A stretch of 27,655 nucleotides of DNA from IMG/VR virus record IMGVR_UViG_2537562192_000021, positions 1-27,655 of that record. One strand, 5' to 3'. Positions 12,201 through 15,200 of this stretch are shown piece after piece. A program made the position numbers. The DNA comes from a virus (Duplodnaviria > Heunggongvirae > Uroviricota > Caudoviricetes). Numbering within the stretch: position 1 is the stretch's first letter; the number at the start of each line of letters is the position of its first letter.

Positions 12201-15200
12201 TAATCTTACAGTCTCAAAGTCATACAGCATGCTGAATTGTTCGAGCGCACCCAGAGCATACAGTTGTAGTTGCTCATTTTGTTCTGCATCAATGCGGACG
12301 CCTTTGCCATATTTCAGGTCGTGGATTTGTAATTCGCTACCAGCAATGATTATGCCGTCGGCAGTTCCGAAAGATTCTTCCACACCCGTTATATGTGAGA
12401 AATCAACACGTTGTTCAACCAATAGTTCATTATTCTGTGCAAGAGTCCAGACCGTATCAACATACCGGCCAACGGCTTCGACCATTTCATCATCCACCTG
12501 TGGGCCAGATGTATCATCAGGATTTTCGCGAAGGGGGTATGAGCCGAGAAACATAGAAACATTGCATCCGGCGTAGTGTTCCGGGTGGCTTTGCCTGTTT
12601 CGTAGAACTTTTTCAGCAAGCGCGTGCGCTGCAGTGCCCTCAATTGCAAAAGTTGTTTCTTTATCCGGTTGTGTGGCCTCCAGCGCCAGACTTCCTGGGC
12701 AGCGCATCCATCGATGCGCTGATGATGGAGAAAGTTGTGCATGAACGTCTGGCATGATTAACCCTCCAGTGCTTTTTCAGCCAGGGTGATTACTTCAGCG
12801 AGATTTTCATCCGTTACTTCACCAAGTTTCCTGGCTCCCTGTTTTTCCAGAATTGCAATAGCTTCTGCCCGGTAACCCCCTTTTGCTAGCTGGAGGATCA
12901 ACCCTTCAGCTTGTTTGCGTAGTGCCGCGAAATCAATTGTATGGTTATCTTTGGCGTCATTATTCTGGCTGGAATTTGCTGCGTCTCTGCGTGCAAATTC
13001 TTCCTGCAGCTGAAGGTACTCAACACGGTTGATCTCGATATGGCCTTTTTTCAGCATCTCGTTCAACTTGCGTAAGGTGTGGAGTTCACTGGCTGCTGTG
13101 CCGGATACATTTTTGACGTAAAACGGCCCCGTGCGTTCTCCATCTTTGTTACTGGCCTTTTTCGGCTTAACTTCATCACGCCCATCTGCAGGTGCATCAA
13201 GTAGCTGCTCGGCAAAAGCACGTCGCTCGCCGATGGTTGGCAGGTCGTCCCAGAACTTAAGAATGTTACGGGACAGGTCCAGGAGAGCAGGTTTAAGCAG
13301 CGCCCTGGCTCGTTTGACGCCCTGTAATGCGCTGTCGAGAGCATCAATCTGAACTACTCGTTTATCGCCTTCAGCATCACGGTAGGCAACAGCACGTTGC
13401 AGCATGTCTTCTGTGATAGGGGTGGCTACCGGGTAGAAACCAGCCAGTGCGATAACGTCGCTGAACTCCAGATCATCCAGTGTCATTGCCGCTGACATGT
13501 TTTCAGCTTCAGTTGCTGTATCCCGACATTCCTGCACTCGTGAAATCGTGTCAGGATGCATAACAATACCTGATGCCATTGTGCGGATAAGACGTTCAAG
13601 CAGCGTATTATGTTGTGCCAGAAGTTGATTATTAAGTTCGAGACTGGTTTCTAAACTCATACTGTGGTCCTCGCTACAAGGAGAATGAAAGTGATGATCA
13701 GACCGAGCGCAGTGGCAACGGCCAGACCGGTCATCAAATCGAAGTTTTTACGGCGATAACGGAGAACATCGCGCCCCGTCAGTCGATGGATGTGTTCAGG
13801 TTTCATCGGTTGTATTCCTTTTTTCATATCGGGGAGCGCGCTGTTGCGAGTGCGCTTTCAGACATAAAAAAGCCCGTCACTTGAGGCGGGCAAAGGCTAC
13901 ACACAGCAATTACATGGATGTCAGTTTTAACCACGTCAGACGAGATGGCTCTCTCTGTACCCCTACAGCGAGAATTCGGCTAATATCTCTTTACCCCTAT
14001 AGTTTTAGAGAGAATTAAGATGTCTGAAGAAAAAGGACTTGTACGGCGTATAACTGAGGCGGCCACTAGTGCTGGTGGTGCTTTGAAAGGTGCTGTTGAT
14101 TTAGCAAAAGAAGTTAATGCGTTGCAGGTGGATTACAATGTTAAAAGTAAAACTATCGATCTACTTGATAAACTAATTGATGCGCGTACTGGACAATTCG
14201 CACTAACGGAGCTTTTGAACGAAGCTAAACAGCGCATTGTTGAACTCGAATCCCTTCTGGAAAAGAAACAGGATTGGGATAGTGAGAAAATGAACTATGA
14301 AATGTACCACCCGATTACCAATACGGTGGTCTATGTACTGAAGCCTACTGACGATCCTGAGTTCAAGCCTCATTATCTTTGTACTACATGCTATGAGTCG
14401 GGTATGAAGTCTATACTTCAATACCATACTTCTAATGCCGCTTATAAAATTCTCAAGTGTCATAAATGCTCCGCTGAATATAAATTTCCCCGAAATATAG
14501 AAGTCAGTGGCAAAATTCCTGCACCGTTACAACCTGCCAGATGATTAGCAGTTCTCTTTGGTGGTGGTGTAGTGGTAGATGCTGAACTTCGGATTGACTC
14601 AATGGACTGATCTTCACCCCACCCCAAAAGGAACTAAGCGCCCCATCGTCGGGGCGTTTCAACTTGCGTGACTTATCAGTTTGTCGCGGTGTTGTCCTCT
14701 ACGCTTACCGTACGCATACGGACTCGGCGCTTACCTCGATCCCATCGGGTGCTATTTCGTTTTGCCAGGAGTACTGCGGCTTACCTGTCACGCGGTTCAG
14801 TTTGTTAAAGAGCGATTACTTATCGCGATCAAAAATACAAGCAAACCTGTAAATGCGTCAACAGGTATTTTGGTAATAAAACGCATTATTAACCTAATTA
14901 CTTGTTTTTACAGGTAATAAAAAAGAGGGCCTAAGCCCTCTTTGTTTAGTAGTCAGGATGCGATTATCTTTTTCTGCGGAATATGCGATGTTCTACCATT
15001 GTCCCTATGATCTTAATTGGTTTTTCCCAGGAGCGACAAATAGGGTAATCAGTATTCAAGGGAACAAGTTCAAAGTCTTCCTCACCCTTAGCGCCAATCC
15101 CTACCGGGCGGTATTTTTTGAACGTTGCTTCGTGGCTACCGTTACATGCCGCAACGAATTCACCAGGAGTAGGGTATACGTCAGTGTCAATTATAACGAT

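Follow-up and report, generated by a model that had tools for sequence, protein, structure and literature searches.

The virus record IMGVR_UViG_2537562192_000021 (Caudoviricetes; positions 1 to 27,655, the whole stretch of DNA analyzed here and called the window below) raises the question of what a lone gene at positions 14020 to 14544 does on the strand opposite to both the leftward early operon and the cI-like repressor gene beside it. The original prediction, made from the sequence alone, described an orphan gene of unrecognized family in the position that lambda uses for rexAB and guessed a role in exclusion or defense. The gene proves to be a member of a known family, Rip1 ("ring interacting pore 1"), in which it is a different allele from that of phage HK446, and it is one allele of a swappable accessory cassette. 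The best overall explanation, with a probability of about 0.8, is a Rip1-family antiphage protein encoded by an accessory ("moron") cassette of an Escherichia coli prophage, with predicted regulation of the type known for the sas RNA of phage P22.

The open reading frame (ORF) on the plus strand begins with ATG and encodes 174 amino acids (aa). The start codon at 14020 is supported because all close homologues of the product begin with MSEEKG. The AT richness stated in the original prediction is seen in a GC content of 0.396 for positions 14001 to 14500, compared to ∼0.45 to 0.52 on either side. The AlphaFold2 model (mean predicted local distance difference test value [pLDDT] of 77.5) shows helices at residues 4 to 16, 21 to 34, and 39 to 92, the last being a long central helix, followed by a β-rich domain from residue 93 to residue 157. 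This domain contains the four cysteines 121, 124, 147, and 150, which form a CxxC...CxxC arrangement conserved in the family; the helical N-terminal half and the C-terminal cysteine pairs had both been described correctly from the sequence. The hydrophobic moment reaches its maximum within the protein, with values of 0.38 to 0.49, in 18-residue windows spanning residues 1 to 33, and no transmembrane segment was found in the protein (Kyte-Doolittle 19-mer maximum of 0.67). In the model, helices 4 to 16 and 21 to 34 thereby provide the N-terminal amphipathic helices characteristic of Rip1, and a role of these helices in a pore is predicted.

Scans against Pfam, NCBIfam, and PADLOC (2023) return only weak coiled-coil noise and a marginal match to the CxxC family ECs_2282, and PHROGs assigns the protein to phrog_1244 (function unknown; E = 2e-43). 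The identity of the family comes from the PDB. A phmmer search of the PDB sequences gives one strong match, chain L of entry 9oox (E = 8.4e-45, residues 3 to 159 versus 3 to 160), whose title describes Rip1 of Escherichia phage HK446 complexed with the small terminase of Enterobacteria phage T6. HK446 Rip1 (HK446_037) is 47% identical to the 174-aa protein over the full length (47 to 48% by tblastn) and 46% identical in the C-terminal domain. The original prediction had proposed structure prediction as a check, and Foldseek comparison of the AlphaFold2 model with the PDB leads to the Rip1 chains of the same entry, 9oox_M (E = 2.7e-11, probability of 1.0, template-modeling [TM] score of 0.61) and 9oox_L (E = 1.7e-10, probability of 1.0, TM score of 0.57; both scores target normalized). 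Beyond these two chains, no match with an E value of <1 was found by Foldseek in the PDB. The 9oox chains contain 124 to 126 modeled residues out of 164, with the N-terminal ∼40 residues unresolved and outside the Foldseek comparison.

When 1.84 billion cluster representatives (50% identity clusters) were searched with a profile, 2,708 Rip1-family relatives were found at an E value of ≤1e-3, including 1,097 at ≤1e-10, and nearly all of the best 150 of the 2,708 relatives are 140 to 180 aa long. With these relatives, the match to phrog_1244, and the agreement with Rip1 in sequence and fold, the description of the gene as an orphan of unrecognized family falls away. Across 62 diverse members with identities down to 23%, Tyr93, Cys121, and Cys124 are invariant, and Leu76, Trp86, Leu95, His118, Leu133, Gln134, Cys147, and Cys150 are conserved in at least 90%. 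Every family-conserved residue of the C-terminal ring-contacting domain is present in the 174-aa protein. Close homologues also occur in Citrobacter, Edwardsiella, Tatumella, and Pantoea. No partner gene conserved across the Rip1 loci compared was found, and the layout is that of a single-gene prophage system, with a lone plus-strand gene in the early region of a prophage that carries an integrase, cI/cro, Q, and lysis genes.

Rip1 is described as a prophage-encoded single protein that is not toxic on its own (review PMC13434031, summarizing Patel et al., 2026, Nature 651:1060), and the descriptions in PMC13601566 and PMC12908700 agree with this review. Escape mutations map to the portal in Pseudomonas phages and to the small terminase in E. 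coli phages, and 12 Rip1 subunits encircle the 11-mer of the small terminase (PMC13434031). A pore arises from the amphipathic helix at the N terminus together with the ring-contacting C-terminal half, as seen by dye release from liposomes and by perforation of cells, and homologues are widespread among proteobacterial prophages (PMC13434031). The guess of an exclusion or defense gene thus gains strong support from homology to an experimentally characterized protein. By analogy to the HK446 and Pseudomonas Rip1 proteins, the lysogen would make the 174-aa protein, which would be harmless alone. During late expression of a superinfecting phage, the small-terminase or portal ring would be bound by the C-terminal 4-Cys domain, and the ring of the invader would serve as the template of a Rip1 ring, as for the 12 Rip1 subunits around 11 TerS subunits in the solved complex. 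A membrane pore would then be opened by the amphipathic helices at the N terminus, with collapse of the inner membrane and abortion of the infection before progeny mature.

The position of the gene relative to the immunity module differs from the one first proposed. The gene is, as originally stated, alone between the leftward operon and cI, being the only plus-strand gene there and convergent with cI. The leftward operon begins with a 56-aa ORF (13657 to 13827, minus strand), followed by a 300-aa phrog_6784 protein, a DUF2800/PD-(D/E)XK nuclease, and an Enc34-type single-stranded-DNA-binding protein (SSB). The cI-like repressor gene (14964 to 15644, minus strand; phrog_4) encodes HTH_3 and Peptidase_S24 domains (Pfam E values of 9e-15 and 6e-18), and to its right lie a rightward cro-like helix-turn-helix gene and a primase/VapE replication protein gene. 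A 20-nucleotide (nt) repeat with 90% identity connects positions 14833 to 14852 with positions 15664 to 15683, and the palindromic 18-mer TTACAAG-N4-CCTGTAA is found only at 14835 to 14852 and twice in the cI-cro intergenic region. These searches indicate two putative oR operators (15643 to 15683) and one putative oL operator (14835 to 14852), the latter overlapped by a putative pL promoter from the promoter scan (TTGACG-18-TATTTT, 14832 to 14861, minus strand). The terminator scan places the cI terminator at 14922 to 14943 on the minus strand (−15.4 kcal/mol, z = −3.9, followed by a U-tract). In the heteroimmune prophage of IAI1, the sequence diverges from the window rightward of ∼14814, which marks the boundary of the immunity module, and the IAI1 module shows the same layout with a different 18-nt repeat at the same two places.

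The sequence thus supports an immunity module with the order oL/pL, terminator, cI, oR, and cro and with the rip1 gene outside it. From the operator repeats, the promoter-like site, and the module boundary, rip1 would lie to the left of oL/pL and antisense to the early-left transcript. In lambda, rexAB lies between cI and oL in the same direction as cI, and sieB (34482 to 35036, plus strand) abuts N. The rexAB position of the original prediction therefore does not hold, as the operator-like 18-mer and the promoter-like site (14861 to 14832) stand between the gene and cI. In location and orientation, rip1 appears instead to occupy the sieB position of lambda and P22, antisense within the pL transcription unit. 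A conserved segment of ∼190 nt (14628 to 14813, minus strand), located between the cassette and the putative pL, is a candidate leader of the early-left transcript. It is nearly unchanged among four prophages with different cassettes and immunity modules and contains three GGTAAGC repeats in the minus-strand reading (GCTTACC on the plus strand) and a GC hairpin at its end; no Rfam match was found for it. The segment may act as a leader, as a put/nut-like element for processive antitermination, or as a small RNA, and there is no N-like gene here. For CTGTACCCCTACAG, a LexA box was ruled out by the spacing of CTG-N8-CAG instead of CTG-N10-CAG.

The likeness to sieB extends to the leader. About 105 to 110 nt upstream of the rip1 start are the reverse complement of the published sas RNA of P22, a 127-nt read (PMC13397905, Table 2). 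In the window, the sas-like antisense RNA region at 13915 to 14030 on the minus strand is the complement of the rip1 5′ leader, the Shine-Dalgarno sequence, and the start codon. The minus strand is identical to the P22 sas core at 64 of 78 positions (82%), compared to 66 of 78 for the HK446 copy, and two ACCCCTA(C/T)AG motifs stand in the leader at 13959 to 13968 and 13993 to 14002 on the plus strand. This leader is kept in nearly all enterobacterial Rip1 loci despite proteins with only 36 to 48% identity and differing backbones. According to reviews, pairing of sas with the sieB mRNA redirects translation from SieB toward Esc, a truncated inhibitor, and P22 thereby escapes its own SieB. By the homology of the leader to sas and the orientation of the gene, prophage induction, or infection by a phage with the same cassette, may lead to leftward transcription that yields a sas-like RNA. 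This RNA would pair with the rip1 leader, the Shine-Dalgarno sequence, and the AUG, shutting off Rip1 synthesis and sparing the phage its own weapon. The original P22 work on sieB, sas, and esc is said to be that of Ranade and Poteete in 1993.

The predicted fold of P22 sas consists of three hairpins (z = −2.4). An explicit structure was tested on a focused alignment of 31 distinct leader sequences and comprises a hairpin around the second GUAGGGG together with the interleaved stems AACCAC/GUGGUU and GCCUG/CAGGC. In this structure, 91.0% of the alignment cells are paired, compared to 28 to 41% with the partners slid. Ten of the 19 pairs are changed on both sides, with compensatory pairs in each of the three helices, and none of 500 shuffles attains any of the measures observed. 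This covariation is evidence for a hairpin and an H-type pseudoknot in the 3′ domain of sas. Two other approaches were rejected. RNAalifold on the raw MAFFT alignment of the leaders gives a spurious long-range helix between two GGGG motifs without covariation, and alignment-free pseudoknot searches were discarded, as shuffles gave at least 10 base pairs in 19% of cases and the strand test was uninformative. The window copy keeps HP2 and S2 (two G·U pairs), and the 3′ arm of S1 is lost to an 11-nt deletion. Within one Rip1 allele, two leader variants exist at 13925 to 13945, an intact one in H10407 and L013 and a deleted one (11-nt deletion plus substitutions, with one pseudoknot arm gone) in the window, IAI1, and strain A4; the two form a natural test pair for the importance of the 3′ domain of sas.

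A scan of viral contigs with the leader motif ACCCCTAYAG-N18-32-CCCCTAYA gives at least 120 matching contigs. Among the 120 listed, a SieB ORF lies downstream of the leader in 73, assigned by match to one of four seed sequences confirmed as Pfam PF14163, and a Rip1-family ORF lies downstream in 26. A few of the listed contigs carry an ORF of ∼80 aa or a 105-aa membrane ORF, and the remainder are chance matches in repeats. The ∼80-aa family (MDLEMDIPDMVFPISLTHP... and MSDIPEMIFPVALTHP...) and the predicted 105-aa membrane protein (MDSILSKLALDAWYKVF...) stand behind sas-type leaders in viral contigs including L048:1093-1400 (plus strand), L149, and L166; neither ORF has a Pfam match, and both are candidates for new exclusion genes. 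A broader reading, held tentatively and at somewhat under even odds, is that Rip1 genes in enterobacterial prophages, rather than being independent morons, would be alternative cargoes of an ancient, portable exclusion cassette with a sas leader. The shared leader would then drive SieB, Rip1, and at least two other families of small ORFs on varied backbones, always antisense to the lytic operon.

The locus comparison across related prophages, which the original prediction had also proposed, reveals the cassette nature of the gene directly. In a four-way alignment with the IAI1, CREC-544, and STEC435 prophages, the flanks are conserved up to ∼13919 and from ∼14628, and the segment between them (13920 to 14627, leader plus gene) is replaced. 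In CREC-544 and in phage vB_EcoM-689R2, the slot contains a 189-aa Rip1 allele with 44 to 45% identity; in JNEC-KY176, it contains an HNH gene and, on the other strand, a hypothetical gene; and in STEC435, it contains ∼440 base pairs with only an unannotated 64-aa CxxC ORF. This 64-aa ORF (locus L004:2424-2618, minus strand; MKTYKPLKGECPACQAQ...) shows a CxxC...CxxC arrangement on the pL-sense strand and could represent either another cargo or an ORF that exists by chance. DNA of the backbone region is matched in 153 of 5,426 complete E. coli genomes, none of which matches more than 80% of positions 13000 to 15700. The 174-aa allele itself is present at ≥99% nucleotide identity in 27 of the 5,426 genomes, including IAI1, H10407, and O103:H2 12009. 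It is annotated as a hypothetical protein among the matches listed and in the four loci opened, and in all four the same prophage type carries it. The antisense placement recurs outside this prophage type. The HK446 gene and its copy in a P22-like phage lie next to N in the sieB position, and the JBD30 Rip1 gene is a lone opposite-strand gene in the late region between JBD30_029 and JBD30_031. In 28 of 39 Rip1 loci, the gene has opposite-strand neighbors on either side when the nearest ORFs of ≥100 aa are considered.

The persistence of one allele bears on whether the gene is still active. It is kept in 27 genomes of diverse origin, its ORF is intact with all family-invariant residues, and close homologues exist in Citrobacter, Edwardsiella, Tatumella, and Pantoea. 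These observations make it improbable that the window carries an inactive or decaying Rip1 allele in a remnant cassette without defense, as could otherwise be suggested by the 11-nt deletion common to the window and IAI1, by the absence of the gene from some relatives, and by the frameshifted genes of the prophage family, e.g., the polymerase of H10407. The variable slot content argues against a function in the biology of the prophage itself, such as lysis timing or a packaging check through its own terminase or portal ring. This possibility is a little less probable still. The rings bound by Rip1 are made by every tailed phage, and the copies in Pseudomonas Mu-like phages stand in the late region, between the terminase subunit genes (PMC13434031), which would suit such a role. 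However, the gene is dispensable, with otherwise near-identical prophages holding other genes or nothing in the slot, and in most loci it is antisense to lytic operons. In addition, the regulatory leader is shared with the known exclusion gene sieB, and both defense and escape mutants in the invading phage have been published (PMC13434031).

Compared with HK446 Rip1, the Rip1 protein of the window represents the same kind of single protein of 160 to 175 aa, with homology over the full length, the same predicted fold, N-terminal amphipathic helices, and a 4-Cys domain, and the HK446 copy has the same sas-like leader. The gene shares with the HK446 and Pseudomonas copies its placement as a prophage-borne lone gene antisense to the lytic operon. 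In contrast, only 46% of the ring-binding domain is identical to that of HK446, the window protein has 10 to 15 extra C-terminal residues, and its upstream RNA element has the 11-nt deletion. The backbone is also different, with a PolA, primase-VapE, and DUF2800 early region, and the slot lies between the putative pL and the first early-left gene, whereas other copies stand beside N or between terminase genes. With P22 and lambda sieB, the gene appears to share its place and its orientation antisense within the pL transcription unit, and with P22 it shares a leader whose complement is the sas antisense RNA. By analogy, it would also act like sieB in excluding superinfecting phages by abortive infection while leaving the resident phage a way of escape. 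SieB, however, is a PF14163 membrane protein to which the window protein is unrelated, with no match to PF14163, and the window prophage has no N gene between the putative pL and the cassette.

RexAB of lambda resembles Rip1 as a prophage abortive-infection system near cI that acts through membrane depolarization. RexAB is encoded by two genes on the cI strand within the immunity module between cI and oL and has a different trigger; in the window, one gene lies on the strand opposite to cI, with a terminator and the putative oL/pL between them, and shows no similarity to RexA or RexB. The least probable reading, and a very unlikely one, is a zinc-ribbon protein that binds nucleic acids and biases the choice between lysis and lysogeny, a role proposed for RexA in lambda (PMC11077077). 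It would fit the CxxC...CxxC motif and the location beside the immunity region. Against it stand the lack of similarity to RexA or to DNA-binding families in Pfam, NCBIfam, and PADLOC, the full-length homology and fold match to Rip1, and the place of the gene outside the immunity module. Among other defense systems, TerI (small terminase) and Avs1 to Avs3 (large terminase) resemble Rip1 in that they detect conserved late proteins of the invader with structural or packaging roles. Avs4 senses the portal and is likewise a large multidomain STAND NTPase with a separate effector domain. Avs1 to Avs3 are such large multidomain STAND NTPases with separate effector domains as well (PMC13601566), whereas Rip1 is one small protein whose effector pore is templated by the very ring that it senses.

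The hairpins on either side of the gene both exist, as claimed in the original prediction, but only the left one resembles a good terminator, and it faces leftward, so that they do not form a matched pair of terminators for the gene. The left hairpin (13872 to 13891, minus strand; −9.8 kcal/mol) is followed by UUUUUU on the minus strand. It is located between the sas-like region and the first ORF of the left operon, directly leftward of the former, and is kept in all backbone relatives. Because the U6 tract is on the minus strand only, this hairpin would terminate leftward transcription and not that of rip1. The right hairpin (14636 to 14659, plus strand; −16.5 kcal/mol, z = −2.6) is GC rich, stands 92 nt past the stop codon with a weak U-tract (UUUCAACUU), and might terminate rip1 transcription. 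The cassette ends on its right side at this hairpin, which is kept in all relatives whatever the cassette holds. The consensus terminator scan called neither of the two. On the minus strand, Rfam shows a subthreshold match to RprA from 13964 to 13862 over the full model (46 bits versus a gathering threshold of 70; E = 6e-5). The identity as RprA was rejected, as the match is below threshold, spans the junction of backbone and cassette, and is probably a resemblance driven by the terminator; the region has the layout of a small RNA that ends in an intrinsic terminator.

Several points weigh against the reading as an active Rip1 system with sas-type control. Activity of the 174-aa allele is predicted from homology, and identities of 47% overall and 46% within the C-terminal domain do not allow the trigger specificity of HK446 Rip1 to be carried over to it. 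The promoter scan shows no canonical plus-strand sigma-70 promoter upstream of rip1, and only a conserved −10-like hexamer, TAATAT (13981 to 13986), is seen there; expression of rip1 in the lysogen is thus assumed by analogy to sieB and to other Rip1 genes. The scan itself gave no more sites than shuffled controls. The leftward terminator at 13872 to 13891 and the hairpin at 14636 to 14659 both lie on the path of the pL transcript, so that read-through from pL across the cassette has to be assumed. For the sas-like element of the window, the minimum free energy is no better than that of shuffles (z = −0.3), and together with the 11-nt deletion this indicates that antisense control may be weakened in this copy. 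The strand test on the alignment favors the sas strand only modestly, with 28 G·U versus 18 A·C pairs overall and 9 versus 2 in the pseudoknot. Finally, an Esc-like internal start in Rip1 was ruled out: no internal methionine is conserved, Met90 and Met94 not being kept in homologues, which leaves no conserved start for an Esc analogue.

The cassette resides in a Shiga toxin (Stx)-converting prophage with a toxin operon of the Stx2 family. The late part of the window contains the genes for the Q antiterminator (18805 to 19227), a tRNA (19397 to 19470), the Stx A subunit (19496 to 20524; Pfam RIP, E = 3e-29; the true start is probably the methionine of MKCILLKW), the 87-aa Stx B subunit (20537 to 20800), the small RNA STnc100 (20888 to 21096), and a nanS-p-type esterase (21319 to 23292). 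From 19392 onward, the DNA is ∼90 to 93% identical to that of Stx2a and Stx2d phages, covering stx, nanS-p, and the endolysin gene, and this level of identity indicates a divergent Stx2 subtype. The early region (2067 to 13660 and 15929 to 18148) is nonlambdoid and encodes an SNF2 helicase, an AntA-like protein, a family A DNA polymerase (PolA), an Enc34-type SSB, a DUF2800 nuclease, and primase-VapE. The non-Stx phages vB_EcoM-689R2, 611R5, and 606R2 share this early region at 97% identity. The combination of this early region with late and lysis regions of the Stx phage type points to a mosaic phage. Within the early-left region, Rfam matches at gathering level occur at 10561 to 10743 and 6736 to 6824, both on the minus strand, for C4 antisense RNA, isrK, and sRNA-Xcc1 (70.6, 50.9, and 62.5 bits, respectively). 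C4 and isrK lie side by side, an arrangement reminiscent of antisense immunity and anti-Q control of the P1/P4 or Gifsy type.

The analysis adds to the published work the link of Rip1 to the sieB/sas cassette, the covariation support for the sas structure, and a copy of the gene on a Stx2-family prophage. The RefSeq hypothetical protein WP_001288045 and its relatives, present in IAI1, enterotoxigenic E. coli H10407, and O103:H2 12009, now have a name and a proposed mechanism that can be tested. The exchange of the 174-aa and 189-aa Rip1 alleles, with 44 to 45% identity between flanks that are 94 to 98% identical, is a natural experiment on trigger specificity. The prophage of the window, with its Stx2-family toxin operon, may also protect its host from other phages and shape which phages can coinfect Shiga-toxin-producing E. 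coli. The shared sas-type leader ties Rip1 to the work on sieB, sas, and esc from the 1990s, suggests how prophages with Rip1 avoid killing themselves, and provides a simple DNA motif with which more exclusion genes could be sought. If Rip1 and SieB are indeed alternative cargoes of one portable cassette, any unknown ORF behind a sas leader would be a candidate for a new exclusion gene, and sas-type antisense control would be a general self-protection of induced prophages from their own abortive-infection pores.

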